Source: Tubiluchus corallicola
Lineage: Eukaryota; Animalia; Priapulida
NCBI GenBank assembly: GCA_030141605.1
Contig: JAQGDQ010000333.1
Span: 197,803-261,802, forward strand
DNA length: 64,000 nt
Reading direction: 5' to 3'
A program made the translations under genes and the position numbers. Numbering within the stretch: the first letter of the stretch is position 1; each line of letters begins with the position of its first letter. This document shows, piece after piece, positions 28,801 to 64,000 of this stretch. The notes below the pieces were generated by a model. The model was not told the DNA's origin and ran no database searches. It saw only the letters and a list, made by a program, of their open reading frames with translations.

Positions 28801-31800
28801 GCTATTGGATAATGGGCGGCTAGACAAAGGATAAACCATGGCCACACAACATAATCAACAATACATTGATTTTCATTAGACCAACTAAAGAAAATTTGCA
28901 AGACTGTAAAAATGGACAAAAGGATTGAGTAGCTGATGCAGAAGAGAATTAGTTTATAAAATTTGTTGGCTGTCATTAGTTGTTTGTATATGATTGGTTT
29001 TGTCATAGCTAAATGTCTGTCGTAGGTGACTAACATTAAATTTCCTAATGTGGATATGACGCAGAACATAGAAAAAAATGCAAAAAATGAGCAGAATCCC
29101 ACTTCTGTCTTTGGATGAATCATGAGGGACATAGTAACCACTGGTGCTAGAAATCCACTGATCAGATCTGTAATGGCCAAGCAAGCAAGAAATTTATTGG
29201 TGAATGTCTGCAGTTTTTTGAATTTTCCAATGGCAATGATAACTAACAAGTTGAGAAATATAGTTAGTACACCTATGGGCACTATTATTATAATTTCTCC
29301 ATTTGCCTTAAGCAGATCATATGATTTTGCTTCAAAGTTTGTGTCATCAGGTTTGGCTTCAGTCTCATTTGTTTCCTTGCTGTAGGAAATCCCAAAACTT
29401 CCGTTTCTGCTAATAGCAATTTTAGATTCCATTTCCGTGGTAACACGCCTATAAGTTGTTTCACATTTTTGCACAAATTATGTCATCACTAATTTTCACA
29501 TATCTACTGATTTGCAAAATATGTTGTCGCAACTTTTATCCACCTTGATGATTTACAAAAGTTTCTCTCCCTCTAGATGATTTGCCAACAGTAATGTCTC
29601 TTATTTATAGCAAAGCAAGATTATTAAAGGGTAACACTTGTCAGTCAGCACATGTACTGCACATGTAGGAGTGTACGTCATAATGACCACATCAGCCAGT
29701 GAAACTCTAGAAACTTGTTTTGAAAGAAACTTTATTGTGATACCTACCTTGTTCCATTATGCAGCTTTGCAATTTTGTGTGTAAAACACAAAGGCAGTTT
29801 GCGTGTTACTGCTAAGCTATCAGAAATGGCTTTAGTTTGTTTGGTTAAGTGCACAGATCATATAGATTTTTGTGACACCTGAATGGATTTGTGAAACTCT
29901 GTCTTAGAACAAACAATTTTCTTTATTATCTTGGAAAAACAGCTAGGTTCAATCCGTTATTATGTTTTTGGGAAAGAATAAAATTTGATACAAATAAAAA
30001 TCTTTTGTTATATTAGGTGTCAGGTTTTATCACTATTTTGTTCATTTTTCTTGAAGCATGGATGTCAGATTAAGTTTTTTAATGAAAAAAATTTATTTTA
30101 ATCTATTAGAAACTTTTGCTAAAAATATAGTTTGAATTAAGTTTTTACATGTTTTATTCAGATTTTAAAAAAAATGAAGATTAAATGACTTCGTAAGATA
30201 GAAACCTAAAAATTATTTTGGTTGATTTATGCAAACACTATGACTGTCAAACACAACTGAAGAACGTTCTGTACAATGTCATCTCAGTGATATGAAGTGT
30301 CTCAAGTCCTAAACACTAAGCAAAGTGCTGCTTGTTATAACAGTGCATGAGCACTGCCCTCAGTTATCTACTCCATAAAGTTTGTTGTTTGGTTATGATT
30401 TTTATAAAGTTGGACGACTGAAGCATGATTTATATTTTAGTGCTTTAGCCCCTGCTATTTATCTGTGTACAGTAATCTTTAGCATCATGGATGTCTGCTA
30501 TTTCTATCACAGGGAGTAAAACCGGTATAACCTGTCAGTTGCCACTGCTTACTGACTATCTCTGTTGATTACTTTTTCTATCTATGTTGATTTCTTTACA
30601 ATTTTGTTGTGTTATTAGTTTCTGTTGTATCTCACTCTCTTCTGTGACTGTGACCAGTGATTTTATACTTCTGTGTTTTTCCCTTGAGTTTTTTTATTAG
30701 CATTTATTATATGTATAAAACATAGCGCCTAAAAAATCAATATTAGTAATTCCATTCAGTCTTTTCCTTTTTCACCTGAAAATAAACTAGGGCGACATTT
30801 TTCATTAATATATGAGGTGCTATATAAGGACATGAAATAAAAATTCATAGTTCATAGTGCTTCCACCACTGGCAAACAATTATATTCTCCCCTGTTTCAT
30901 ACATTTCCATTAAATTCTGTCTGTTTCATGTTACAAGCTTTTTTAGCCTTGCTGGTGTGAGACTTTCAATTTGTATTTGTTATAACCTTATCTCAGATTT
31001 CTGTTCTCAGAAACCTGAGATGTATTACAGACTATGTGTCTGCAGAGGATGCTACAGTGTTCCATATTTTTACTTTTCCTGTCTGAATGTCAATTAACTG
31101 AACTGTTGCCGATTGTGAAAGTTCTCAAGGAACACAAAAGCGCTTGTGGTCTATGCCATGTCCAAGTGCTCATCCGCAAAATTATAGCAACAGCCCTGCC
31201 TTCACTGGCTAACATGACTTTTTATTAACAGTACAATTATTAAACAATTGTGTGCTAATAAAATTAATAAATAGTAGTAATAAAGTAGTAATAAATGGCA
31301 CTATAATCATGTTAATCACTTGATAAATATACACAAAGTAATACAAAACAAATTATAGATCAGAAAATGTTATCAGTTTTATTTATGTTTCGAGCTTAAA
31401 ACTGTAACTATGACACCGTTATTTCATTTTATTATTATAAGTTTAACAAACTCTGATTCTTAATGGCTAATCAGGGTTATATTGACTGTACAAAACTTGA
31501 CTGTACAATCAATTACTAAATTGTTAACATTGGCTAATGCAGAAGTCTATTTGTGAACTGTGTAAGTATATTCATATGTTCACCTGATTTACAATTGACT
31601 CTGTACTTTATTTGCAAAGCAGTGTAATTTTAGTTTTCTTTGCAGGTATTTGCGGAAGTGGTGGGCTCAGTACACTGAGAGTCATGGTGAGATGGAAGTA
31701 GCTATGCAGTTTTATGAAGCTGCTGGAGATTGGTTGTCACTTGTCCGTGTCTATTGTTACTGTGGTAACATTGACAAGGTCAGAAACTTGATGTCAACAT

Positions 31801-34800: not shown

Positions 34801-37800
34801 GCTTCAGCACTCAGATAATTAGTTCTTCTAAACAATACATATGTTCTATTCATGCATGTGTTGGGAACAAATTAGCAGTTGGTGCTAATAAAGCACTTCT
34901 ACACATAGGTGGATAGATAGCTCTTGATCATTAATGCAGAAAATCATCAAGCTAATTTGTTGGTTTGATGGGTCTATTGTAATTCATAAAAACTTTTGTG
35001 TACTACAGGCAAAGATTGCTAAAATGTTTAATGTGTTGGCTGTATTGAATCATTAAAATAATGACGAAGTTCACATTATTATTATTATACATCATGATGA
35101 CGCAACTTGTCATCATTAAAATAATGACAAAGCTCACGTTATTAGCCTACATCATGATGACGCAACTTGTCATCATTAAAATAATGACAAAGCTCACGTT
35201 ATTAGCCTACATCATGATGACACAACTTGTCATCATTAAAATAATGACAAAGCTCACGTTATTAGCCTACATCATGATGACACAACTTGTCATCATTAAA
35301 ATAATGACAAAGCTCACGTTATTAGCCTATATCATGATGACGCAACTTGTCATCATTAAAATAATGACAAAGCTCATATTATTAGCCTATATCATGATGA
35401 CGCAACTTGTCATCATTAAAATGATGACAAAGCTCATGTTATTAGCCTATATCATGATGACGCAACTTGTCATCATTAAAATAATGACAAAGCTCATATT
35501 ATTAGCTTGCATCATGATGACACAACTTGTCATCATTAAAATAATGACAAAGCTCATATTATTAGCCTGCATTACGATGACACTGCTTGTCATCATTATA
35601 ATCATGACAAAGCACAGGTTATTAGCCTACATCACACTGACATGATCTTTATCTTATTTTCATGAATCTTAAAGGCCGATTCAGTGAAAAAATAGAATTT
35701 ACCTGTTGTCTGCAATGTTTTTGCTAAATTTGTCTCACTTTTTGCTTCTGAACTGAATTAAGCAACGTTATCTTTAGATGTTATGCTTGCTCGCTGCAGT
35801 GATTACAACACTGATACTGTTGCATTCATCTGCACAAAATCCTTATGTATCATTAAAGTGGACATTCTTTCGTTTTCACCAATTTCATAAAATATTTCGA
35901 ACTTGGTAAAATGCTTGGTTGGTCTGTATTCAAATGTTCACAGTAAAGTTTGACGAAAGTTTCCTTGTACTTTTTCGATAAGACCAGAAACTGAGATAAT
36001 CAAACACATATGAAAAAAGTTTCAACCAACCCAAAATGCCAGTCTACAGAGGAACCGGGAAACGCCAACCATCCAGTGGGAGTCCTTCTCTCAGCTGGTT
36101 AACTGCTCCGATGCCTGAAAATTTACTCCCAGGAAATTAAACACACTTAACAAGGTTTTAAATTTATTTTAAAATTTGAGATATGAAATTTAATTAATAA
36201 TTTTTGGATTAGAGTTATAACTAGTACTTGGTTCATTATGGCAAGTGTTGGAGTAAAGTATTGCTGTGCTGTAAATTGTAATAACACAAAGAAAAGTATC
36301 AATCCAAGAATGAATGAAGTGGCAAGAATACATTCCTTTTCATACGTTATAAAAGATTAAATTGGCATAATGTTAAATAGCATATAGCTTTATTGCCATT
36401 GTCTTATTAAATAAATAAATAATGCTGTTTCTACTCTCATCACCTATCTAAGTCCATCACTTGTTTGCATCAATCAAAGAATGCCTCCAAAGGAAAGAGT
36501 TGTTTTGCCTGGTAAAGGAAAGCTTTAATATAATTACAACTAGGTAAATTATCAAAAGTGGAGAATGCAGAGGTGGAAGTTATTGTCGTTCTTCCCTGCC
36601 ATTGTCTTCTGTTGAATATGAAATCAAAGTTACAGCATCTGTAGGACTTCAACACATAGAGAAGTAGGTAAGCCTCTATACCACAGGATGAGTTGTAACA
36701 AAACTAATGATACAATCTGCCAGTGAGCAACAGCTAAACATAAATAACAAGATGTTTGTATGCAAATCTATCATTTAATTAGAAATATATTGAAGAAAAC
36801 ATATCAAGCAGGGATTATTTCTGTTCAGATGAATTCTACCCAAGGTATTTTGGCACATAATCAATGTGTGATGGTTGTGAGACATGACAACAAACCACCA
36901 AAATATAATTATACTTGTCTTTATTGATAAGGCGGATGGATAGGGGTTGAAATTGCTCTTAACATATTCTTGCAAAGAGCGCCTTGAATGAAACTAATTC
37001 AAAAATTTGTAATGAATTACTGTATTTATGAAGCAACTAGTGAGAAAATTTTTATATACCTTTATTATAACAATTAAACAAATGAGTCTCTGCCCTAAAT
37101 TACTTTAAAAATCAGCAGAATGTCCCGGCCAATGACATAAATGCACCAATTTTCCCCAAATTGAGTGGAGCAATTTGTTTTTTAAAGAGCCGGCATTTCA
37201 AATTATCTGTTGTTAACTCGACCATTTTTACAATTTCCAAAAATCGGGTTTGATTAACCGGACTTTGCATTATGAGTCTAGTGCTACCAGGAACATGTGT
37301 CTTTAACATGGAGAATAATAACAATAAAATAATCTTCAAATTGTCACCATATAAGGGAGCTATTTTGTAATGTTGATCTTCTTTGTACAGAGTAACATAT
37401 CCAACAATCCTCTCACATTCTGTAGCCACAAAAGTTCGAGTTGCAGAACTTTGAAGCCAAGGTCTCAATACCTTTGGTCTTGCATTTCCACCAGCTATAA
37501 TAGTGTCGTACTTTTCTAACTCATCATAGTCAATATTATTAAAGTCAACAATTATGTAGTCATTATTTGGTGCATACATTTTGTCCACTGCAGTTTTGTT
37601 TAGTATTCCTGACACTGTAATTGCATTGTGAGCATGATAGCTAAATCCAAACCTTTCATACATTCCTTTTAAGTGATACAGACTGTCTAATCCAATATTG
37701 CAGATTTTGGGAAGTTGTTTTTGCAGCATTTCTATTAGAGCACCGCCAATACCTTGACGACGGACACCTTTTCTGACCAAAATAATACCAATCATGGCTA

Positions 37801-40800
37801 TGTCATCACTAATTTGAGCTGCAAAAATGTGCCCTATAAAAATCAATCAGTTACTGTATCTAAATCTGAAAACATTTGATGATTGATCATGAAGTATTAT
37901 TGGAGAAGTTTATAATTGAGTGTCATTTTCCTTTAATTACAAGATTAACTTGAGTATAACCACTTCATGTTTTGTGCTGAATGTTCCACTTACCAAGAAG
38001 ATTTCCTTCATTATCAATGGCACAGAGTGAACTTTGTGGATTAGTCGTCCAAAGGATGCTAATGAGTTCAGAACTTGATGTCCAGCCTTCTGCTTTTATC
38101 ATCTTGAATATTTCTTCATGCATCTCGTGTTTAGTCTGAATTATTCTGTAGTCCATTTCACTAATAGAACAGAAGCACTGTATTTAACTGCACTTCTTTT
38201 GCTAGTATTTGATTAACAGATTGACAGTACCATCATTTCTCAAAAAAAGTTTCAAGTTTCAGAAATGTAGCATTACAAAGAGGACCCAAAGGTCACCTTT
38301 CCTATATCATTCTCTGAACACCTTTCCCATGTTTTTAGGTCTTATAATTATGAAGTTATTAACTTGACCCTATTTTCTGTTTTGGCTCCTATCTTGGGCC
38401 CTGAAGGAATCCCAGCTTTTTAAAACACCAGGTGCACATTTAACCCACAATGCTTAAATACTTGTAAAAAATTGAAACAGAAGAATGGTTTGACACCCTC
38501 TGTCACTGACACCCTTGAGCAGAGATCAGCAGCCACTACATTGCTGCCCTTCCCCTGCCAAAGGCTACTTGCTCGTTGAGTTTCGTGACCCTAGTTTGCA
38601 AGGCCAACAAGTAATTAAGGGAGATATGTTTACGGAGAATGAATAAAGAAGTAAACAACTCTATGAAAATCATAGCATAATGTCAATGAAATTGAAAAAT
38701 TTTGCCTATAAGTCCACTTATAATCAATAATGCGTGAACAGTGAACATCCAACTTAGTGTCCATCTCTTTACCTGAAGCAAAGCCAGCAGCTTTTACTGA
38801 ATTAAAGTTATAGGCAGACTCTGGGAATGCTATGGGTACAGAGTACAATGGGAATGACGTCAGAACAATGCAAACGTCACTGTAGCTTCTAAGCGAAAAT
38901 CTCCCAAAATGGAACCTGTAATCAACTCTTTGCCACTCTTCTTGATGGAAGTGCCTCAACATGTGGCCCACATCATCGTGTAGACCTGTCCTTGTTATTC
39001 TTCTTTCCAAGGAGCTATATATCTCCTTCCAAGAGTCCCACCAGGTGCAGCTAGGACATTTTTATACAGGCTGTTCTGTCAAAATTTCAAAAAAAAATCA
39101 GAAGTTGGGTCCCGGGAAAATGCCCGTTATGGGACGCCATGACCCTCCAGTGAATTATAAATATGTCTCCTACACCCACCCATCTATCTATTATCAGCAG
39201 TGCCCCCAGCCTGTTCCCAATCTGTAGAAATAAGAGGTATAAATTTTGCAAAAAAAAGAAGCCCATTTTGGAGGTATTTGGCCCCCCCTTCCTCCCGGTG
39301 GGCTCAAATAAAAAATAAACCATCAAATAGATGACACCTGATCAAAATTTAGATACAAAAAATCCGTCTGACCTTGTTTGACCAGGAGGCACTATTGGGA
39401 AAATATTGCTCCTTATGTACCTTTATGTCTTTATTGCCTGTGAGAATTTTTGAATAGACGTTGCCAAAACAGAATGATTTTGTGTCAAGATCCTCACAGT
39501 GTCAAATGTGAGCCAGGTGACGTACAACATCATGAATGCTCTAGTTTTTATAAATTAGAATTCATATTTTTATTTACTGTACAACTATTATGATAATATA
39601 CGATTTTTTAAATTATTTATTTCGGATATTCTCCTTATGTTTAATGTCAAAGTATTCTAAATTAAGGTATTTTTAATTATCATATCACCTGGTTACTATG
39701 CAATGTGGACATTTATCAAGCCAATTCACTAGGAGCTTCAGCAATCTTATTTGCAGCTGCACTACATATATGAACTACAGACAATCAAAAACGTTAATTA
39801 TCTTAGCGATTATTAATACTATTTATTTAATTTTTTATAAATCCCGTTCCTCACTATATGTAACGCAAACCAGTTGCCAACGTTAATAAGTTAAAGCCAA
39901 CAGAGTAATTATTTTAACAAGCTAAAACTGAACACTATAAGCTAAGTATGCCTAACCTGATTATCTGTAATTATATTATGTGCAGCACTTATGTAATCTG
40001 AGGTATAATCCTATGGCTACAGCAATTTATCTGCTTAACTAATTTAGCTAGCAGCCTTTGACCTTTAGTACAAAGTTACAAGATCTTTACTTTATTGCCC
40101 TTGATCACGACTAAACAGCGTTTGGCCTAAGATTATTTGATGGTGAGCTAAACCACAGCACGCACTACGTATCCAAGCAATGTTATCATTTGTTTACTGT
40201 TCGATTTCCAAACAAATAATTTGCCAATGTATTTTCATCAAGAAATTTATATTTTCAATGTATTACACATAATGCTGTTCACATTTCTGTGAACATAAAA
40301 TGCATACATATGTATTATATTAGCAGGTGATTTTACAGAAACTTTAATTATTTCTGGAATGTTTTTAGTTTCAGTCTACAGAAGTAAAAACAATAGTGGA
40401 TGTTCTTGACTTTACAGAAACTGTGATAAGCTTCTGTGATAGAAGATGCTTTAAGAGGCAGCTTTTATTGTGTATTTACAAATAAAAATGATTCCCAAAA
40501 TAATGTGGATGTGACTCATACCAGTCAATTTGCCTCACTGAGGCCTTTCATTTGAAGTACTACAACATACTATTGCCTGGCACTGGATGAATTGTATCCC
40601 TGACCTCTAATACCAGTTTTTGCCAACCAGGGGGGCTACAGCTTGAAGCAATCTGGGCTTAGGCCATCCCATTCAATTCGTCTCACCAAGACCTTTCATT
40701 TGATGACCATAAGATATTAAAATTGCAACATGTTAATTTAACCTGTCATTTTGGGGTCAACGGTCAATAAATATGGGCGTGACTCATGCCACCTAATTAC

Positions 40801-52046: not shown

Positions 52047-53719
52047 GCATTAGGAGTCACTTGTAGTTTTTAACTTAGCAATTTGCAAAACAACGTACAA
52101 TAATATTAAATGGCCACTATTTAATGTTCAGTGAAAATCCATTAATTTAAATCTAATTAAGTGTATACTGAACATAAATGCTGCATGTAATACAGTCTAG
52201 CCTCATTATAATCTTGCCGTCCCCTTTATAATGCCAGCCTCGCTTAATGCCCAAATTTTTAGTAAAATGAAATACCTGCATTTGCATAGACATGTATTTA
52301 TTAATGTACCTCTTTGGAATGTCAAACTCACTGCAACTGCAACTTGCTTTTGCAGTCTCAAAGTTAATCCTAACAGCTGTAATTACATTAAATACCTAAA
52401 TTACCAAGTTATAATCATTTTTGAGCAATTACTTCAAGTTCACATTTATTCATGTAACCTGAATCCATATAGATTAGTATAGAATTTTTCTGATAATGTC
52501 AACAATTTAATTTGTTGTAGAAAGTGTGCAGGCACGTCTCGTTTTGCTGGGAAGATTACAGTATTTTTAACCGACTAATATTGCATTCTGCAGCAACAGC
52601 CAAACTATTGAAACATAGCACTAACAGGTCCTCTACTAATTGTGATTTTAATGCATTTTGTGTCTACCTCTTATTCAATTTAAAAAATGATGGTCTGTTA
52701 ATGCAGGCATTTTAAATAATGAATGCACATAGAAGACGTTCGTTTGTGATATGCCGGTTGTTCTCTGAAATATTCTCCGTCCATTTTTGTGTCACTGTTA
52801 GTAAGTCTTGCGTATTAGTTATGCTGAGATTGTATGTAATGTACATGTTTTGAACATTTAAATTATGAATTAAATGTGACCTTATTTAAAGTAACCAATG
52901 AAGAAGTGTTTTATGCAAATTCAGTGGCAGTTATGTATTTATAAAAACTTTATCTTTCCGCTGCATTGGAAGGACTATCAATCTTTATGTTAGTGAATGA
53001 CTGAAGAACACCTGTGTAATTCCTTTATTATTATGTGGCAGTTTTTTTGTGAGTCATTCTAGCAGGGACTTTACAATTTAAAAATTTTGTACCTGTAAAA
53101 CATGTACAGTATTTTAATTTTGACCATCTTCATATTTGGTTTTTTAATTATACAAATAGATATTTCTTTCGTTGTGTTCAATGAATATTAAAGAAGATTA
53201 ACCGAAAAGACGATGTTCAACTTGTGGACTATATGGTCCGATCCTATAATAAAATAATCGGGACTACTCACTATTGCTTGTGTCGAAATCGTCGTTACCA
53301 CCAAAAAAATATACCATAGATGCTAATGTAATATTCTCTAAAAAAATATAATCATCGGAATTTTAATATTGTTTACACGCACTATGGACGCAGCCATTAT
53401 GGATGCTCTTATGTTATGCACATCTTCGCTATACGGCAAGCACACCAGATGCTGACCGAAAGATAAACACAGGGCGATGAAACTTTAGAACCCGGTGAAT
53501 TCCCGGTTTGGAAAACAAGAAAATGAAAACAAAAAGGATCAAACATAAGCTGATAAATTAGATTAAATGTAGACAAACATATGCGCTGTTAAAAAAGAGC
53601 AAAACAAATTGATGAAATTATAATTAGAAGACTGAAAGTAACAAAGTGTAATGAACAGCCCACCCCTCGGTTACAATGCACAATCCATGGTAACTTAGCG
53701 ACGCCGACGCTCAGGCGGC

Positions 53720-53727
53720 TATATAAA
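53720..53727 (+). promoter_or_regulatory. LTR TATA box
   Basis: GGC-TATATAAA-GGGAGGG in a GC-rich context; repeated in the 3' LTR at 63121-63128. Confidence 0.75.
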
Positions 53728-53809
53728 GGGAGGGCCAGGCCATTGACCACACACATCCGAACATTTTCAAAGTGATAAAGAGCTACAGCAACTGAAGATT
53801 CATCTAAAC

Positions 53810-53832
53810 ATGGAAAAGAAGCAGGATGAGAA
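53810..53832 (+). CDS. LTR ATG mini-exon (MEKKQDE + phase-2 donor), putative first exon of ORF3; an 8-codon uORF when unspliced
   Basis: AAAC-ATG-GAAAAGAAGCAGGATGAGAA|GTAAGT: good Kozak context and consensus donor ~85 nt after the TATA box; phase matches the acceptor at 61323. Confidence 0.65.
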
Positions 53833-53899
53833 GTAAGTTTTAACTTACTAGATAAAGCTAGCTTTCAAAACTAGCTAGGATGTGTCAGGAATCTAGAAC

Positions 53900-54735
53900 C
53901 TAGAAAAGAGTTCCAGAAATGAAAAGAGTTCCAGAAACACTAGGTTCTAGAAACCAAAAGAGAAGCTAGAAAAGGGTTTCAGGATTAAAGCAGTTCCAGA
54001 GACAAAAAGAGTTCCAGAAAGTTTCTAGATTTAAAAGAGTTGCTGAGAGTTCCAGGAAAATCCAAGATTTAAAAGAGTTGCTGAGAGTTCCAGGAAAATC
54101 CAAGATCAAAAGAGTTCCAGTAATTTCCAGGAATTAAAAGAGTTCCAGTAATTTCCAGGAATTAAAAGAGTTCCAGAATTAAAAGAGTTGCAGAAATTTC
54201 CTGGAATTAAAAGAGTTGCAGAAATTTCCTGGAATTAAAAGAGTTGCAGAAATTTCCTGGAATTAAAAGAGTTGCAGAAAGTTCCAGAATTAAAAGAGTT
54301 GCAGAATTAAAAGAGTTGCAGAATAGAAGAGTTCCAGAATTAAAAGAGTTCCAGAATTAAAAGAGTTGCAGAATAAAAGAGTTCCAGAATTAAAAGAGTT
54401 GCAGAATAAAAGAGTTCCAGAATTAAAAGAGTTGCAGAATAGAAGAGTTCCAGAATTAAAAGAGTTGCAGAATAGAAGAGTTCCAGAATTAAAAGAGTTC
54501 CAGAATTAAAAGAGTTGCAGAATTAAAAGAGTTGCAGAATAAAAGAGTTCCAGAATTAAAAGAGTTGCAGAATTAAAAGAGTTGCAGAATAAAAGAGTTC
54601 CAGAATTAAAAGAGTTGCAGAATAGAAGAGTTCCAGAATGAAAGAGTTCCAGAATTAAAAGAGTTGCAGAATAGAAAAGTTGCAGAAAATTCCTGGAATG
54701 AAAAAGTTCCACTTAAAAAAAAAGTTGCAGATCAC
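53900..54735. repeat. Minisatellite inside the 5' LTR (16/17/28-bp variants of AAAAGAGTTSCAGAATT)
   Basis: Dozens of AAGAGTT(C/G)CAG cores in tandem. Confidence 0.95.
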
Positions 54736-55244
54736 AAGTCAGCTAGCTATTGATCCGGGGTTATTCGAGATCTTATACAAATAAGTGAAAGAAGAGACTG
54801 GATCATAGTTTTGCTCACTTTTAGTTAAATGTGGAACAGGAACATAGTACCTATACACAGGACTGGCATGAAAATTGCAACTGCTTAATCTTACTGAAAC
54901 CTGGACTCTAGCATTCTTTGCATGACCAATTGCAATTGCTATAGAAGATTTCTTTAACTAGAAACAAGAATAGTATTGATGATATTGTGGATTTTACCTA
55001 ACTAAAATTAGCTGTATTTTATAGTAAAGTCAATAGAATAAATTATTTTAATCTTAGTTCACTTGTTGTTGCTTTTACTCAGTTTAAATTTGAATTACAA
55101 GTAGCCTCAAGATATTGTCAAAGCTGAACCCAACATTTTTTTATGTAAAAATAAAGTAAAATAAAGTTAGTTGCAGAAGTCAATGATAGGTGGCACTTTA
55201 ACCTAATATCATACCCTTAAGCCGAGCTGTGCCACACTACATTT

Positions 55245-55262
55245 TGGGGGCTCGTCCGGGAT
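55245..55262 (+). other. Primer binding site, tRNA-Pro
   Basis: TGGGGGCTCGTCCGGGAT, the 18-nt complement of the tRNA-Pro 3' end (same as the MLV PBS), just after the LTR CA. Confidence 0.93.
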
Positions 55263-55332
55263 TTTGAATTTTGTTTTGAGGCATTGTGATTCAAACTGAG
55301 TAAGAACGGCAAGCTGTAATAAAATTGGTAAA

Positions 55333-56760
55333 ATGACAGCTATATTATCCTACTTAAAATCCTTTCTGACTTCCACTCCTAAAAGTAACACTGATACAAT
55401 TGTGGGAGCACAAAATACAGAGGTCCACATAGAAAATGCTATGCATAAGATGGAAACAGATGGAGCAGAACAAGATAGAAAATTCAGCAAGAGAAGAGCA
55501 ACACTCCCAGCAGCACTGCAAAACGAAGAAAGCTTGCAGCCGACTACATTACAGATAACACCATCTGTAAAACCAAAAACAACTTTATCCAATCTCGGTA
55601 CACCTAGTACTGAAAGCAAGCGAAAACGTGCGAGACATACAGGCTGGATTGAAGCACCACCTGTAGAAGTACATTCACCATGGTCAGAATGGTCAACAGA
55701 GGGAAATGCATCAGAAGCTGGTGAAGAAGTAGAACCAAGATGGCCACATATAAGTTATACAACACCAAATCAGCCTGAAGTTGGATGGACACCACTGCCC
55801 CATCTTACCAGACAGTCAACTCCAACTGCGACAACACAAGCAAAAGGAGCAGGCAAAATACGCAAAGAAAAGAAGCCTCCTACTTTTAAAACAGGAGATG
55901 GCTTGCAGTTCAGACAATTTATTGCAAAGTTTGAACTAGTTGCAAAACACAACAATTGGCCAAGAACTGAATGGGTTACCCACCTACCCTTATGCTTGGA
56001 AGGGGATGCACTTGAAGTTGCCATGGAAATGGATTTGGATTCTGGTGAAGTGACTTACATGTCACTCATCCAAGCACTGGGTAAACGCTTTGATCCAGCT
56101 GAACGCATGCTACAACATCGCAGTGAGCTGAGGCATCGAATGAGAAAATTAAGTGAAACTCCGGAAGAGTTTGGAGCTACAGTTCGACGTTTGTTTGGCT
56201 TAGCCTATCCTGGTTTGTCAAAAGAAGCTAGTGAAGCTTTACTAATTGATAAATACCTGGAAGGACTTGGTGACATAGAAGTCAGAAAGCATGCCAGCCT
56301 CCAGGAACCAAAAACGCTTGAGGATGCAATAACAAAAGTTGCACAATATGAGGCAGTGACTAAGGAGGCCGCCGAAGCTAGAAGCAAGAAGCCGCTACAA
56401 CCGAGAATCAACCAAGTGAATTATACACACAAAGCATCATCAAGCAAAGAAATAACTTTGGAAGAAATTATGAAAGAGCTGAACAGTGTAAAATACCAGC
56501 TGCGTGAACTCACTAATACTGAAAAACAAGAAAAGAAGTTTAATGTTGAATCAAATATGCAAAAACAAAATGAGGTGAGAAATCAAAATGACTGGCGTGC
56601 GAAGGTTGAATGTTACTACTGTCACAAGCCTGGACATGTGATGAGATTTTGCAGAGAAAGATTTCCCAAGATGACACAGTTTTTGATAGCTACATCTCCA
56701 AAAAGACCAAGAGAAGAAGCTGTTGGTTCTGAAAACCAGGTACATAAGCAGTTAAACTAA
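55333..56760 (+). CDS. gag: Gag, 475 aa
   Basis: Capsid-like FRQFIAKFELVAKHNNW...LEGDALE; CCHC knuckle CYYCHKPGHVMRFC; lies after the PBS. Confidence 0.92.
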   Translation: MTAILSYLKSFLTSTPKSNTDTIVGAQNTEVHIENAMHKMETDGAEQDRKFSKRRATLPAALQNEESLQPTTLQITPSVKPKTTLSNLGTPSTESKRKRARHTGWIEAPPVEVHSPWSEWSTEGNASEAGEEVEPRWPHISYTTPNQPEVGWTPLPHLTRQSTPTATTQAKGAGKIRKEKKPPTFKTGDGLQFRQFIAKFELVAKHNNWPRTEWVTHLPLCLEGDALEVAMEMDLDSGEVTYMSLIQALGKRFDPAERMLQHRSELRHRMRKLSETPEEFGATVRRLFGLAYPGLSKEASEALLIDKYLEGLGDIEVRKHASLQEPKTLEDAITKVAQYEAVTKEAAEARSKKPLQPRINQVNYTHKASSSKEITLEEIMKELNSVKYQLRELTNTEKQEKKFNVESNMQKQNEVRNQNDWRAKVECYYCHKPGHVMRFCRERFPKMTQFLIATSPKRPREEAVGSENQVHKQLN

Positions 56761-56837
56761 AGGAGACCGGACACGGGGCCAGTGTCCCGGTCATGAATAC
56801 ACAGGCCTCAGGAATACTACCTTGCACTGGCCCCGTG
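56751..56837 (+). other. -1 ribosomal frameshift signal (slippery site + pseudoknot)
   Basis: G_TTA_AAC (56751-56757), 7-nt spacer, stem GACCGGACAC/GTGTCCCGGTC, loop GGGGCCA complementary to TGGCCCC (56828-56834); the -1 frame is open into the protease. Confidence 0.8.
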
Positions 56838-59800
56838 ACGAGAAAGCAAGAGGTAGTTGTAGCTCTGAACAAAGAAGAAGTAGTTATTCCTCCTCACTCC
56901 GATCTGATAAAGAAGAGAAGTGAGAACATTGTAGTTCTACCAGTAGATTATAAATATTGTTGGCATGTAGAATTATTAATCAACAGTTTAGATGTAGATT
57001 TTGTAATCGATAGTGGAGCCAGTGCTAGCATATTAGATGTTTACATGTATTATAGTATTCCGGAAGAAGAAAGACCAGTCTTGAAAAGCACTGAAAAGAA
57101 TCTTCAAGCAGCTAGTGGACACACACTGATTCAAATGGGAGAAGCTGAATTCCAAGTTATATTAGCTGGAATAAGTACACACTGATTCAAATGGGAGAAG
57201 CTGAATTCCAAGTTATATTAGCTGGAATAAGTACCACTAGTACAATGATTGTCGCTTCCATTGGAGGGCCTTTCGGAATTTTAGGATTAGATTTTCTTGA
57301 ACCAAGAAGTGCTGTGCTAGATATGCAGCAAGGAATTCTCCATATTGGTGAAGTTACTATACAATGTTTCAAGAATTCAGTGGATAGTTCAGACTATGAA
57401 CATGAGTCTTCTTCAGATAATCAGATTGACTTAGTGTTGCCAGAAAATATTGGTGAAAGGGCAGCTCCAAAATCTCTGCTCCCTGAGCACTTGCATCAAC
57501 TAATAGAAGAAATCAGCTCTAAGCTTTCACCTAGCGAGCAATCTTCTCTCGTAAATTTGATACAGGAATATCAGGATATATTTGGGGGGCCTGATAATAA
57601 ATATGGCAGGACAAGCTTGGTAAGACACGTTATTGACACTGGTACTGAGCACCCAGTTAAACAAGCTCCGAGAAGACTGGCTGAACAGAAAAGAGCCATT
57701 GCTGAAGCTGAAATAAATAAAATGCTCAAAGAACAAATTATTGAACACAGCAACAGTCCCTGGGCCTCACCGATCGTGTTGGTGACTAAAAAGGATGGCT
57801 CCACACGATTTTGCGTTGATTATTGTCAGTTAAATGAAAAGACAATTAAAGATGGGTTTCCACTGCCAAACATTCAAGAGATTTTTGACACATTACGTGG
57901 GTCCCACTGGTTCTCTACTTTCGACCTAGCTAGCGGGTATTGGCAAGTTGAAATGGATGAAACGTCGAAGCCTAAAACAGCTTTTGTTACACGACAAGGA
58001 TTATTTCAGTTTCGAGTGATGCCGTTTGGCCTTTGTAATGCACCAGCCACATTTGAGAGGTTAATGGAAGAAGTACTTAGAGGCTTACAATGGAAGAATT
58101 GTCTTGTCTATCTCGATGATATTATTGTTTTTGGCAAAAACTTTGAAGAGGCTAAAAATAATTTAAAGACAGTATTTTCTCGCTTGAGGAAAGCAAATTT
58201 GAAAATCAAGCCATCAAAAAGCACACTGTTTCAGACAAGTGTTCGGTTCCTAGGGCATGTAGTGGATAGTCAAGGCATCCGATGTGATCCAGACAAAATA
58301 CTGGCTGTAAAGAATTGGACATTCCCAAAAACACCTACACAAGTACGTAGCTTCTTGGGATTTGCTTTATATTATAGAAAATTCATTCCACATTTTGCCT
58401 CAATTGCAGACCCCCTTACTGCCTTGACAAAGAAAGGAGCAACATTTATTTGGAATGATTCATGTATGGCAGCATTTAACACCTTAATAGATCTTTTAAC
58501 ACGAAGTCCTGCATTGGCATATCCAACACAGGAGGGAAAATTCATCTTAGATACAGATGCCAGTAACTCTGGGATTGGAGCTGTTTTATCCCAGTTACAA
58601 GTCGATGAAGAGAAAGTCATTGCTTATGCTAGTAGGACATTAAACCAGTCACAAAGGCAGTACTGTACTACAAAAAAAGAATTACTGGCTGTTATCACAT
58701 TTGTAAAACAATTCCACCATTATCTATGGGGAAGACATTTTAGGATTCGGACTGATCATGCAGCACTAACTTGGCTCATCAATTTCAAGAACCCAGAAGG
58801 TATGATAGCAAGATGGTTATCTATTTTAGACACTTATGATTTTAGTGTTGAGCATAGAAAAGGAACACAACATGGGAATGCTGATGGATTATCCAGAAAA
58901 CCAAATACAAGGGTTAGCAAATGCCCAAGAGAGGACTGTAATGACGACAGGCATAAAGGCACGAAAGAAGCCCACAGTTCTAAAGAAATTAGCAAGAGGA
59001 CACGTAACGATATTTTAAAAGTTCCAAACAATGCTGAGTGTGATTTTATCTATGCAATACCAGCTGGAAATGGAGAAGAGGAAAGCAGTAGTTTCAGAAA
59101 AGGTAAAGTAAGATGTAGAAAAGAATGCTTATGCATGGAAGGTAATTCCAGAAAGGGGGAAGATGGACTTGACAATGTTTATGAAGACCAGGAAGCAGCG
59201 CACAGACTGTGCATAACAGAGGCACCTACTTGTGGAAAGGATGCAGCGCACGACTTGTGTTCTGTAGAGGCTCCTGGTGATATCAGGGAAGCAGCGCAGA
59301 AATCGTGTTTGGTAGAGGCTCCTCCTCATATGGAAGAAGCAGCGCACGATTTGTGTTTAGGAGAGGCTCCCTATATGGCTGAGGAAGCAGCGCATGGTTC
59401 ATGTTTTGTAGTGGCTCCCAGCAGAATATTGGCAAGTCAAGAAATAGAGGTAGAAGATGAAGAAGAGAAAAAGTTTGTTTTAGATTTGTCAAGAGAAGAT
59501 GTTATTAACATGCAACAGGAAGAGGAAGCAGTTTTGTTATTCAAGGAGTTGAAAGAAGAAGATTTGGACCGACCCAGCTGGAAAGATGTGAAAGATAAAC
59601 ACCCAGATTTCAAGGCATACTGGAACTTGTTTGATGTATTAGAGGTACGAGATGGATTGCTGTACAAGAAGTGGGAAACAGATGTAACACCAAGTGCTCC
59701 TGTATACCAGATGGTTGTACCAACTGCATTACGAAGGAAATTATTTAGAGCTTTGCATGAAACCAGAACTGGTGCACACCAAGGAATACAGAGGAGTCTG

Positions 59801-61034
59801 TCATTATTAAAGCAACGGTATTACTGGCCAGGTTATCAGGCAGACATTAAAAGATGGTGCCTATATTGTGCTGCTTGTGCCAGAAGAAAACCTGGAAAAG
59901 GACCAAAAAGAGGTAAACTGCAACAACAGAGGGCAACTGGACCATTTGAAAGAATAGCAATAGACATTTTAGGACCACTAGAAGAGACTGATAAGAAAAA
60001 TAAGGTGGTGATGGTCGTCTGTGACTATTTTACAAAATGGGCCGAAGCCTATGCACTTCCTAATCACGAGGCATATACTGTTGCAGATGTGTTGGTGACC
60101 GAATTTATATGCAGGTTTGGAGTACCAATTCAAATACATAGTGACCAAGGGCCAGACTTTGAGTCAAAGTTATTTCAAGAAATGTGTGCTGCTTTGCAGA
60201 TTGACAAAACAAGGACAACCCCGTATCATCCACAATCAGATGGTCTCGTTGAGAGATTTATGAGGACATTACAGCAAATGCTGGCTATATTTGTTAACGA
60301 TCATCGTGATGACTGGGATGACCACCTCCCTTATGTCATGATGGCATACAGGGCAACCGCACATGCGTCTACCAATTGCTCGCCAAACTTAATGATGTTT
60401 GGTAGGGAAAACCATTTGCCATTAGATGTGATGGTGGGACCTCCACCACAGCCAGAAAGACCTACACAGTGTCCACAGGAATACGTAGAATGGATAAGAG
60501 ATGTTATAAAAGAGGCACACAATTTTGCTCGAGAATCACTGGGAAAAGCTGCAGAAAGACAAAAACGAGATTATGATCAATTTGTGAAAAGGCTTAGCAT
60601 TGATAAAGGTAACTGGGTATGGTACTGGTATCCACCAGCTACCAGGAGAAAATTAGGCCAAGGCTGGCAAGGCCCATATCTAGTACTAAAGAAGATTAAT
60701 AATGTGACATACCAAATCCAGAGAGATGCAAAAGCTCCTGTTAAAGTAGTTCATATTGACAACTTGAAGCTTTATCATACTGATGAACCACCAATAGACT
60801 GGACAGAAATAGAGAAACTAGCAAATTCTGATGATGAACAGCAACTAGAAGAATTTGAATTGAGTAGAATTTTTCCTACAGTTAATGAAGAAGTAGCAGA
60901 GAAAGAAGAAATGTATACAACAGGAACTACCACAATTCAAGAAAAAAAATGATGAACCGTCCAGTAGCACTTCTGACACAATGCTAGGAAGAGGACAGCG
61001 GATGAGGAAACCTCCAAACAGACTTGACCTATAA
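56751..61034 (+). CDS. pol: Pol polyprotein (PR-RT-RNase H-IN), interrupted as assembled by a 56-bp duplication and a +1 A
   Basis: PR FVIDSGAS; RT MPFGLCNAPATF and YLDD; RNase H ILDTDAS; IN HHCC, IAIDILGP, HSDQG, GLVERF, GPY. Track ORFs 56793-57185 and 57191-60952 fuse if one 56-bp copy is removed; the tail RGQRMRKPPNRLDL* (to 61034) is regained by removing one A at 60942-60949. Confidence 0.93.
57121..57232 (+). repeat. Perfect 56-bp tandem duplication in the protease region
   Basis: ACACACTGATTCAAATGGG...GGAATAAGT at 57121-57176 and 57177-57232. Confidence 0.95.
59192..59431 (+). repeat. Five in-frame 48-bp (16-aa) repeats in the RNase H-integrase linker
   Basis: Units start at 59192, 59240, 59288, 59336 and 59384: EAAHRLCITEAPTCGK / DAAHDLCSVEAPGDIR / EAAQKSCLVEAPPHME / EAAHDLCLGEAPYMAE / EAAHGSCFVVAPSRIL. 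Confidence 0.92.
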
Positions 61035-61285
61035 CTTAACCATATTTTCTTCCTTTCCTCTGCTGCTGCATTAATTTTCTGTTAAAAGCTGTTATCTGGA
61101 TTAGTTGCCCTGGGCAAGGCATTAAACTGCATCCAGCATAAGAAAAAAAAATATAGAAAAGTATGAGTTAGTGACACTTGATAATCACATGTCACTTAGA
61201 AATGTGTCACTTATTACAATTACAATGTAGAAAAAAAAGAAATAGGCAAAGGTACCTTAGTAAAAAAAAAACGTAACAGTGGAAA

Positions 61286-62272
61286 ATGAAGTTATTAAAA
61301 CACTGTTATTTTGTCTATTTTAGGAGGGAGACAGTGTACTGTTGTACAAACTGTGACTATAGGTCTCAAAGGACTGCCTATATGTCAAAACACTGGAAGG
61401 CATGTCATGGGAGTAGACAAATTCCCGCTACTTGGCCAACTAAGCGTCTTGAAAGGCCACCTCAGGCAACCTCTGTTGATAAAAGACCTCTGTCACCAGA
61501 AGGATCACCAAGATTGAGCCGCTCCAAATGGAGTACAACTAGTGACAGCAGTCTGGAAAGAAAAGACGGGAAGAAAGAGCGAGATTTAAAGAGTCATAAT
61601 CAGAGGTCGGAACAGGAAAGCAAAATCAAAACAGCAAAATCACCCAAAACAAAAAGAGGAACTTCCCCAGTTACAGTAAGGCCTGAGTTAAGTAATCCGA
61701 AGAACAGGGCCTTCAAGCCACCAACAAGCAACTCAACCTTCAGAAATTTCAGAAGCAGAAGTATTGTGAGGCAGAACAGCACCCATAACCTGACCAACCA
61801 AGTTAGAAAACCAACTAGACCTGCCTTACCACACTATAAACCATACAAGGAAACACAGTCGAAAAATCTGCCAGTATTCCTTGCACCGCAGTCGGACAAG
61901 GTGCCACGAAAAGCTCCACCTCCATGCACAGAGCTAGATCAGATAGTCATGAGGGAAAAGATATTAAAATTAAAAAATGAGATCATGGAACTAGAGGAGC
62001 GATGCAGGGTAGCAGCTCTAAATAAGTGGGAAGCAGTTTTAGAGAAGAAGAGTAAAGAAATTACGGAGAAGAAAGAAAAAGAGTGGAATGAGGCAGTTGA
62101 TCGTATGTATGAGAGAATGGAAACAACTGTAAGCAAGTTGGTGAGAAAGGAGGTGGAAAAGTTGGCTGAAAAGAAGAACACTGAAGGTCAACAACAAATG
62201 CCACCCACAAATACAGATATTTCTATAGATCTAGCTGTCTCCTCGGATGACTTCTCCAGTGAAGAGGACTAA
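61286..62272 (+). CDS. Retrotransposon ORF3: C2H2 zinc finger + basic disordered region + coiled coil + acidic tail (probably spliced, acceptor at 61323)
   Basis: Intact 328-codon ORF; C-TN-C-x12-H-x4-H; EK-rich helical C-terminal third; ends SSDDFSSEED; no signal peptide or TM segment; TTATTTTGTCTATTTTAG acceptor. Confidence 0.82.
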   Translation: MKLLKHCYFVYFRRETVYCCTNCDYRSQRTAYMSKHWKACHGSRQIPATWPTKRLERPPQATSVDKRPLSPEGSPRLSRSKWSTTSDSSLERKDGKKERDLKSHNQRSEQESKIKTAKSPKTKRGTSPVTVRPELSNPKNRAFKPPTSNSTFRNFRSRSIVRQNSTHNLTNQVRKPTRPALPHYKPYKETQSKNLPVFLAPQSDKVPRKAPPPCTELDQIVMREKILKLKNEIMELEERCRVAALNKWEAVLEKKSKEITEKKEKEWNEAVDRMYERMETTVSKLVRKEVEKLAEKKNTEGQQQMPPTNTDISIDLAVSSDDFSSEED

Positions 62273-62711: not shown

Positions 62712-62724
62712 AAGAAAGGGGGAA
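62712..62724 (+). other. Polypurine tract
   Basis: AAGAAAGGGGGAA one base before the 3' LTR TG. Confidence 0.88.
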
Positions 62725-62725
62725 T

Positions 62726-64000
62726 TGTAATATTCTCTAAAAAAAATATAATCATCGGAATTTTAATATTGTTTACACGCACTATGGACGCAGCCATTAT
62801 GGATGCTCTTATGTTATGCACATCTTCGCTATTCGGCGAGCACACCAGATGCTGACCGAAAGATAAACACAGGGCGATGAAACTTTAGAACCCGGTGAAT
62901 TCCCGGTTTGGAAAACAAGAAAATAAAAACAAAAAGGATCAAACATAAGCTGATAAATTAGATTAAATGTAGACAAACATATGCGCTGTTAAAAAAAGAG
63001 CAAAACAAATTGATGAAATTATAATTAGAAGACTGAAAGTAACAAAGTGTAATGAACAGCCCACCCCTCGGTTACAATGCACAATCCAGGGTAACTTAGC
63101 GACGCCGACGCTCAGGCGGCTATATAAAGGGAGGGCCAGGCCATTGACCACACACATCCGAACATTTTCAAAGTGATAAAGAGCTACAGCAACTGAAGAT
63201 TCATCTAAACATGGAAAAGAAGCAGGATGAGAAGTAAGTTTTAACTTACTAGATAAAGCTAGCTTTCAAAACTAGCTAGGATGTGTCAGGAATCTAGAAC
63301 CTAGAAAAGAGTTCCAGAAATGAAAAGAGTTCCAGAAACACTAGGTTCTAGAAACCAAAAGAGAAGCTAGAAAAGGGTTTCAGGATTAAAGCAGTTGCAG
63401 AGACAAAAAGAGTTCCAGGAAAATCCAAGATTTAAAAGAGTTGCTGAGAGTTCCAGGAAAATCCAAGATTTAAAAGAGTTGCTGAGAGTTCCAGGAAAAT
63501 CCAAGATCAAAAGAGTTCCAGTAATTTCCAGGAATTAAAAGAGTTCCAGTAATTTCCAGGAATTAAAAGAGTTGCAGAAATTTCCTGGAATTAAAAGAGT
63601 TGCAGAAATTTCCTGGAATTAAAAGAGTTGCAGAAATTTCCTGGAATTAAAAGAGTTGCAGAAATTTCCTGGAATTAAAAGAGTTGCAGAAAATTCTTGG
63701 AATGAAAGAGTTCCAGAATTAAAAGAGTTGCAGAATTAAAAGAGTTCCAGGAATTAAAAGAGTTCCAGAATTAAAAGAGTTGCAGAATAGAAGAGTTCCA
63801 GAATAAAAGAGTTCCAGGATTAAAAGAGTTGCAGAATAGAAGAGTTCCAGAATTAAAAGAGTTGCAGAATTGAAAAGAGTTGCAGAATAGAAGAGTTCCA
63901 GAATTAAAAGAGTTGCAGAATTGAAAAGAGTTGCAGAATTGAAAAGAGTTGCAGAATTTAAAGAGTTGCAGAACTTAAAGAGTTGCAGAATTTAAAGAGT
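62726..64000 (+). repeat. 3' LTR (truncated by the window end), minisatellite from ~63305
   Basis: Matches 53327 onward with about five substitutions and two homopolymer-length differences in the first ~680 bp. Confidence 0.95.

Follow-up and report, generated by a model that had tools for sequence, protein, structure and literature searches.

The window analyzed here (the whole stretch of 64,000 nucleotides) harbors a young Gypsy element with an intact zinc-finger gene at the position of the retroviral envelope gene. The evidence supports this gene, ORF3, as a genuine accessory gene that is under selection and is not env. A zinc-finger slot after pol is common across related elements and is thus broader than the first-pass annotation held: a sense C2H2-finger ORF follows pol in 18 of 48 related Gypsy loci. 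Judged from the DNA sequence, the best-supported route to ORF3 expression is a predicted subgenomic splice that starts from a donor in the LTR. It is tentatively proposed that the product of this spliced, LTR-initiated RNA acts as a nuclear self-regulator, i.e. as an LTR-binding activator or an anti-silencer.

The element and its accessory gene

The element is assigned to the Ty3/Gypsy LTR retrotransposons, as gag is followed by protease, RT, RNase H, and integrase in this order, and as two LTRs, a primer-binding site (PBS; presumably of the tRNA-Pro type), and a polypurine tract are present (Table 1). Its named relatives come from Pinctada, Mytilus, Pecten, Priapulus, and Cordylochernes. Aligned over 575 columns, the start of the 5' LTR and the sequence from 62726 differ by 4 substitutions and 2 one-base gaps. 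In the window copy, pol is interrupted twice: its frame changes at 57121-57232 and again close to 60945. A 13-nt motif is found in 28 copies in the 5' LTR and nowhere else outside the LTRs.

Table 1. Positions in the window of the element's features, including the predicted splice sites and exons of ORF3.
Feature	Position	Strand	Remarks
5' LTR (TG...CA), ~1.9 kb	53327..55241	+	end placed at the CA preceding the PBS
TATA box (predicted promoter), TATAAA	53722..53727	+	
Predicted coding exon 1 of ORF3	53810..53832	+	23 coding nt
Predicted splice donor GTAAGT, phase 2	53833..53838	+	
LTR tandem array	53903..54687	+	units of 16-17, 28, and 38 nt
Primer-binding site	55245..55262	+	
gag	55333..56760	+	Ty3 capsid-like, CCHC knuckle
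pol	56748..61034	+	protease, RT, RNase H, integrase
Predicted acceptor (phase 2) with pyrimidine tract	61300..61323	+	AG at 61322-61323
ORF3 exon, 315 codons	61324..62272	+	finger, basic middle, long helix, acidic tail
Polypurine tract	62712..62724	+	
3' LTR	62726..64000	+	ends at window edge; second copy of exon 1, donor (63234), and array

The ORF3 exon carries a single C2H2-like finger (61343-61408), whose C-x2-C-x12-H-x4-H arrangement agrees with the classical spacing C-x2-C-x12-H-x3-5-H. The middle part is basic, Ser/Pro-rich, and disordered, with K/R making up 23%, and precedes a long helix (exon residues 203-288, 61931-62188) that structure prediction places mostly at pLDDT >90. The finger, basic middle, and acidic tail described in the first-pass annotation were recovered, and this helix lies at the place of the annotated coiled coil. 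The finger itself gives a Pfam hit to zf-C2H2_7th_ZNF462 (E 0.0047) at 17.1 bits, below the family's cut-off of 27 bits, and matches solved C2H2 fingers weakly (best E 0.22); structure prediction returns only a helix for it, at a low pLDDT of 65. Shuffling of the post-pol region never yielded 315 open codons (0/2000; maximum 164).

An env identity of ORF3 was rejected because it contains no membrane segment (top 19-residue hydropathy 0.22) and no furin site (no R-x-K/R-R), and because the domain search returned no env family match; the view that an accessory gene occupies the place of env was thereby upheld. Domain and homology searches revealed no enzyme domain in ORF3 of the window. When the exon was compared with 1032 candidates (lengths 173-552), no match was found at E 0.01, and among 1.84 billion representatives the only match was P0001, a generic multi-finger protein (E 1.8e-4). 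Atlas matches reached at most 0.87 and serve as leads only. Searches of viral contigs gave 0 of 15 in one case and 3 distant loci in the other.

Compared with two contig variants, the exon appears to be under purifying selection, the counts being small. The major contig of run X1 differs from the window in ORF3 by 10 changes, 6 silent and 4 replacement, plus one 3-nt deletion (pN/pS 0.17-0.25, p 0.008-0.03). For a diverged contig, 36 changes are listed over 61367-61620, 17 of them silent and 19 replacement (pN/pS 0.30-0.42, p <=0.008); it is frameshifted from 61621 onward, with 11 indels listed. In line with the expected conservation of splice sites and protein, donor and acceptor are kept in contig variants and pN/pS stays below 1; the frameshifted part of the diverged contig departs from this, and in the finger region taken alone selection is not significant (4 silent vs 10 replacement).

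The predicted splice

The ATG at 53810, the phase-2 donor at 53833, and the phase-2 acceptor at 61323 were all found where they had been reported, and length arithmetic (323 codons) agrees with an intron of 7491 nt and a joined product of 323 aa. The distance from TATA box to ATG, given as about 85 nt, measures 88 nt. The donor falls within the LTR, so that the intron opens with the repeat array, which sits 3' of the promoter within the transcribed part and begins 70 nt past the donor. On unspliced RNA, exon 1 would be read as an 8-codon uORF with its stop inside the donor.

Scored with crude splice-site matrices, the acceptor comes out best among 860 AG sites, with a p of 0.005 against shuffles, and the donor ranks first of 83 GT sites from TATA to gag and third of 360 across the whole intron. 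Shuffles of the 151 nt past the presumed start site contain an equally good donor in 10.5% of cases; in 0.84%, the first ATG also has an open frame leading to such a donor in phase 2. A further phase-2 AG lies at 61325-61326. The diverged contig retains the pyrimidine tract and an AG directly 5' of the exon, 12 nt shorter and still in phase 2; an in-frame ATG is seen within the tract (by eye, 30 letters), and the 112 letters upstream do not align to the window at 80%. ATG and donor are also retained in an exon-1 variant; a variant contig that covers the 3' LTR copy shows no change in the donor. Run X1 is of unknown kind, perhaps DNA and perhaps the source sample itself; its two exon-1 contigs both continue past the donor into intron sequence, and none of the records listed joins donor to acceptor. 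No RNA run containing the locus was found, and X2 yielded 0 records; neither result bears on whether the element is expressed. Splicing from 53833 to 61323, which is considered quite probable, would take out the PBS, gag, and pol, and the ATG that comes first past the TATA box would then share the frame of ORF3.

Finger genes after pol in related elements

The count of finger ORFs in the related loci compares with 1/48 in antisense, 1/48 in upstream sense, and 0.04 in shuffles. None of the 18 loci contained both LTRs. They are scattered over the integrase tree, and the finger ORF may have arisen once or several times: the quick tree takes 10 changes for 20 rows, the 'no' rows including truncated or decayed copies. 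Enzyme domains are joined to the finger ORF in some relatives (TatD in L034 and L073, GDSL in L071), and in P0033 the end of pol runs on into two fingers and a helix.

An own Met precedes the finger in 21 of 23 relatives, L004 and L045 being the exceptions. In 8/21 relatives, the first ORF3 ATG has an AG resembling an acceptor at most 8 nt ahead of it, vs 26/528 control ATGs (p 1e-5, a post hoc comparison). A test for the best acceptor in 270 nt did not beat its control, with 4/18 sense vs 5/18 antisense cases at p <=0.05.

A profile built from the two-finger ORF3s of five neighbors (L001, L005, L014, L028, and P0033) found 2 proteins, one of them that of L014 itself. On this profile, ORF3 of the window scores -9.6 bits (shuffles up to 5.7) and has only the layout finger-linker-helix in common with the two-finger family; judged by sequence it is not counted as a member and is at most a putative homolog of the finger ORFs of the relatives. 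Acidic ends occur in several of the relatives' ORFs, in L001, L005, and L014 at the N-terminus. As a lead, 2 of 17 tails match a SUMO-interaction-like pattern.

Possible role and comparison with known systems

The proposed self-regulation starts from the layout of gag-pol followed by the selected finger exon, the selection resting on small counts, and from the predicted splice. The protein would likely reside in the nucleus, bind nucleic acid, and regulate the element that encodes it. Less certainly, the finger and the basic region could bind repeated LTR sites, e.g. the array of the 28-copy motif, while the helix might oligomerize across these sites and the acidic tail might recruit activating or chromatin factors. 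Since the array is transcribed and lies 3' of the promoter, an RNA target fits equally, and no fact ties the ORF3 protein to the array.

HTLV-1 (Tax/Rex) and foamy viruses (Tas) encode regulators 3' of pol that are served by a donor in the LTR; these are complex retroviruses with an env gene, and no sequence match to ORF3 was found. In errantiviruses of the ZAM and Beagle subclades, splicing joins a short upstream peptide to env (10.1101/2023.08.03.551782); the window product differs in its missing membrane segment, furin site, and env match. Rotifer LTR retrotransposons carry non-env ORF3s, a GDSL esterase or a DEDDy exonuclease (parts of PMC5408684 and PMC5718144), as a swappable third gene after pol, which is reminiscent of L071 with its GDSL domain, whereas the ORF3 studied here has no enzyme domain; the words 'zinc' and 'finger' do not occur in the main text of PMC5408684. 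A spliced nuclear regulator of a Gypsy-type element is represented by CERV of C. elegans Cer1, likewise non-env, made from a spliced mRNA, nuclear, and possibly equipped with a zinc finger and a coiled coil (PMC10309623, in part). As described there, CERV comprises 517 aa from 5 exons, of which three share the gag frame, and contains H/M/G domains as well as a C4-type loop. None of these features is found in the window gene, which has 2 predicted exons with its finger exon after pol, a finger of C2H2 type, and a mostly disordered product without sequence match to CERV. VANC of the Arabidopsis VANDAL elements, a fast-evolving protein encoded beside non-coding tandem repeats, sets a precedent for an element-encoded anti-silencer with repeat targets, by analogy only, as it is an unrelated protein of a plant DNA transposon for which repeat binding was shown (PMC5735166).

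Spliced ORF3s and CERV were thus already known; for the C2H2-finger slot after pol, no report was found in the literature searched. C2H2 fingers are familiar above all as a means by which hosts combat retroelements. With a common, selected zinc-finger slot in animal Gypsy elements, many of them would supply regulators of their own in the manner of complex retroviruses, and CERV would not stand alone. The case also cautions against taking an ORF after pol for env. In a wider and somewhat doubtful reading, a broad Gypsy group of aquatic invertebrates would consist of complex retrotransposons, in which a fast-evolving C2H2 factor, made by a splice of retroviral style and in some cases bearing an enzyme (TatD, GDSL), binds its own LTR and activates it or shields it from silencing; in the animal arms race, zinc fingers would in that case work for transposons as well as for hosts.

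The chief alternative, a CERV/Rev-like switch, in which the protein of the spliced gene would bind the intron array and let unspliced gag-pol RNA evade splicing and exit the nucleus, is rather unlikely. A strong donor and acceptor bracket gag-pol and would create an export problem as in Cer1 (PMC10309623, in part), and both the K/R content of the middle and the start of the array shortly past the donor suit such a switch. However, ORF3 bears no likeness to the H/M/G domains or the C4 loop of CERV, and the array, which spliced and unspliced RNA alike carry in their 3' LTR, does not mark unspliced RNA alone. The tandem C2H2 fingers of the relatives, with their acidic ends, would moreover look more like DNA-binding activators. 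That the spliced protein has another job, e.g. integration steering, help in particle assembly, or carriage of a swappable cargo domain directed at host defence, is unlikely: the slot of some relatives does hold TatD or GDSL next to the finger, and GDSL and DEDDy ORF3s were proposed as replication helpers (PMC5408684, in part), but the window protein has no such domain.

It is quite unlikely that ORF3 functions by a route other than this splice, such as a start at its own ATG from an internal promoter or another acceptor, or a pol extension. An in-frame ATG with A at -3 is present at 61286, and the own Met of most relatives and the fusion in P0033 point the same way. The element's best acceptor lies 37 nt past this ATG, though, and its use would remove it; the likeness of the diverged contig ends at the tract, and ORF3 starts ~250 nt past the pol stop. 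Very improbable and largely refuted already is a passenger, i.e. a chance frame or a zinc-finger exon taken up from the host together with its acceptor: the finger does resemble generic host C2H2 fingers, as in the sole match P0001, and the diverged contig is frameshifted, but the ORF length, the silent excess, and the slots filled over the integrase tree speak against it, and a recent host exon confined to this copy, as considered in the first-pass annotation, is contradicted as well.

A zinc-finger slot downstream of pol

The most interesting result is the breadth of the zinc-finger slot, the place directly after pol on the sense strand, among related Gypsy elements. Named relatives of the element's pol occur in bivalves, in a priapulid, and in a pseudoscorpion; identity over the integrase reaches 68% in the nearest of them. 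At least 79 metagenome loci (from the best 80 of 568 matches) and 3 loci from viral contigs, 82 in total, served as relatives; L017 was excluded since its match belonged to another element. The count was restricted to the 48 loci that include the end of the integrase plus 700 nt or more of downstream sequence; of these, 18 harbor a sense post-pol ORF with a C2H2-like finger, versus 1/48 antisense, 1/48 in equal-length upstream sense sequence, and 0.04 in shuffles. Five further loci encode loosely spaced fingers. The finger-ORF loci are scattered across the integrase tree (a quick tree; 10 changes).

The slot also accommodates other domains. In two loci (L034:7372-9000 and L073:8060-9988), a TatD DNase domain (Pfam; E 2e-38 for L034 and 1e-45 for L073) lies C-terminal to C2H2-like fingers. 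A literature search on TatD in Gypsy retrotransposons retrieved no paper. A third locus (L071:3514-4680) encodes a finger C-terminal to a GDSL domain; since it clusters with the other two on the integrase tree (support 99), cargo may be swapped inside one lineage. The last 329 residues of P0033, a related pol protein, comprise two C2H2 fingers and a helix in frame with pol; either the slot is fused to pol here or a stop may have been lost. A two-finger domain is common to the ORF3s of five neighbours, and the window's ORF3 obtained no score against their profile; the likeness seen is in slot and layout.

Non-env ORF3s are known from rotifers (passages of PMC5408684; PMC5718144). The zinc-finger slot is not described in passages of PMC11952523, PMC13524379, PMC6338049, PMC7998251, PMC2774666, and PMC6431247, nor in those of the mollusc and annelid surveys PMC6238403 and PMC8556966, whose main text contains neither 'ORF' nor 'zinc'. 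The literature search turned up no description of a third gene with C2H2 fingers in Gypsy elements of animals; supplements may contain element maps, and Repbase/Dfam/GyDB and most subscription journals were outside the scope.

Element structure and ORF3 as an accessory gene

Gag and pol domains follow the Gypsy order (Ty3 capsid, protease, RT, RNase H, integrase), and pol of the window copy is disrupted at 57121-57232 and near 60945. The insertion is young, as the LTRs differ at only 6 of 575 aligned columns.

Coordinates of the Gypsy element and its parts in the window
Feature	Position	Remark
Gypsy element	53327 to beyond 64000	
5' LTR	53327 to 55241	end set upstream of PBS
PBS	55245 (start)	presumably tRNA-Pro type
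3' LTR	62726 (start)	

A four-copy repeat with a 48-nt period (59191-59418), encoding a Cys/His-containing repeat, lies in the RNase H-integrase interval. An AATAAA in U3 of the 3' LTR (62922-62927) is missing in the 5' LTR via a single base difference; further AATAAA sites are located at 55150, 55160, and 62537. Two host ORFs on the minus strand resemble, by eye, a rhodopsin-class GPCR (28329-29477) and an acetyltransferase (37112-37846).

ORF3, the third gene, is a real, selected, non-env accessory gene. The post-pol region holds 315 open codons, a length reached by 0/2000 shuffles, and scans of the protein detected neither a membrane segment nor a furin site. In sequencing run X1, a 948-nt contig spans 61310-62260, nearly exactly from the pyrimidine tract to the stop, and deviates by 10 changes (6 silent, 4 replacement) and a 3-nt deletion (pN/pS 0.17-0.25, p 0.008-0.03). 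A diverged contig of this run is about 85% alike to the window; the 36 changes listed for 61367-61620 (17 silent, 19 replacement; 61456-61487 and 2 further differences close to its first cysteines left out) yield pN/pS 0.30-0.42 (p at most 0.008). Within its finger, His23 carries a silent change, and Cys27 and His28 are without change among those listed. Loss of its frame from 61621 onward counts against selection, as does the non-significant result for its finger region alone (4 silent, 10 replacement).

The predicted splice and its sites

The first-pass annotation had claimed a spliced, LTR-initiated zinc-finger gene; its TATA box (53722), ATG (53810), donor (53833), and acceptor (61322-61323), together with the phases, the 7491-nt intron, and the 323-codon length, were confirmed by arithmetic. 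Scored with crude matrices, the acceptor ranks 1/860 among AG sites 3' of the donor, with p 0.005 in composition shuffles. The donor ranks 1/83 among GT sites upstream of gag and 3/360 overall. An equally good donor arises by chance in 10.5% of shuffles of the post-promoter region; only 0.84% also have the first ATG open to it with the correct phase. Another phase-2 AG is found 3 nt 3' of the acceptor. On unspliced RNA, the ATG at 53810 starts an 8-codon uORF whose stop lies within the donor. Twelve ATGs precede the gag ATG on this RNA (53750-55333); gag translation may therefore require internal entry or shunting.

A variant contig of exon 1, the short coding exon predicted in the LTR, retains ATG and donor. 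The diverged ORF3 contig retains a pyrimidine tract and AG immediately upstream of the exon; this stretch is shorter by 12 nt and leaves the phase at 2, and the 112 nt upstream of it lack an 80% match to the window. Among relatives, the first acceptor test did not beat its antisense control (4/18 in sense versus 5/18 in antisense). An acceptor-like AG at most 8 nt upstream of the first ATG occurs in 8/21 relatives versus 26/528 control ATGs (p 1e-5), a test picked post hoc on data already seen. A Met upstream of the finger is missing in 2/23 relatives. The splice 53833 to 61323 is a well-supported prediction; most probably, transcription from the LTR promoter would give genomic RNA alongside a spliced form lacking PBS, gag, and pol.

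Putative role of the ORF3 product

The protein has a single finger with C2H2 spacing, scoring under Pfam's cut-off and with a low-confidence predicted fold, a disordered middle (23% K/R), one helix (residues 203-288), and an acidic C-terminal tail. Sequence searches found no full-length homologue. The protein probably acts in the nucleus to regulate the element that encodes it. Regulators for comparison are Tax and Rex of HTLV-1 and Tas of foamy viruses.

We tentatively favour a putative binding of LTR DNA leading to activation or anti-silencing, because the finger is combined with a basic region, a possibly oligomerising helix, and an acidic tail, and because relatives show tandem fingers and acidic ends and the LTR holds 28 copies of one motif. 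Tandem repeats are targets of VANC proteins (PMC5735166). A putative export role resembling CERV or Rev ranks next and appears rather unlikely; CERV is the spliced nuclear export factor of Cer1 from C. elegans (PMC10309623). Some other putative accessory role is improbable. Expression of ORF3 without the predicted splice is ranked below this, as a doubtful option. ORF3 has its own ATG (61286), and the pyrimidine tract of the diverged contig also contains an in-frame ATG, which counts against the splice. In run X1 (DNA or RNA, possibly from the source sample) no donor-acceptor joint was found, both exon-1 contigs continuing into the intron; a second run, X2, gave no match to the locus. That ORF3 is a passenger is very improbable.

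Apart from the favoured LTR binding, the acidic tail (62219-62269) resembles what we take to be a phospho-regulated SUMO-interacting motif. A SUMO-interacting-like pattern occurs in 2/17 ORF3 tails, and the related locus L072 ends much as the window's ORF3 does.
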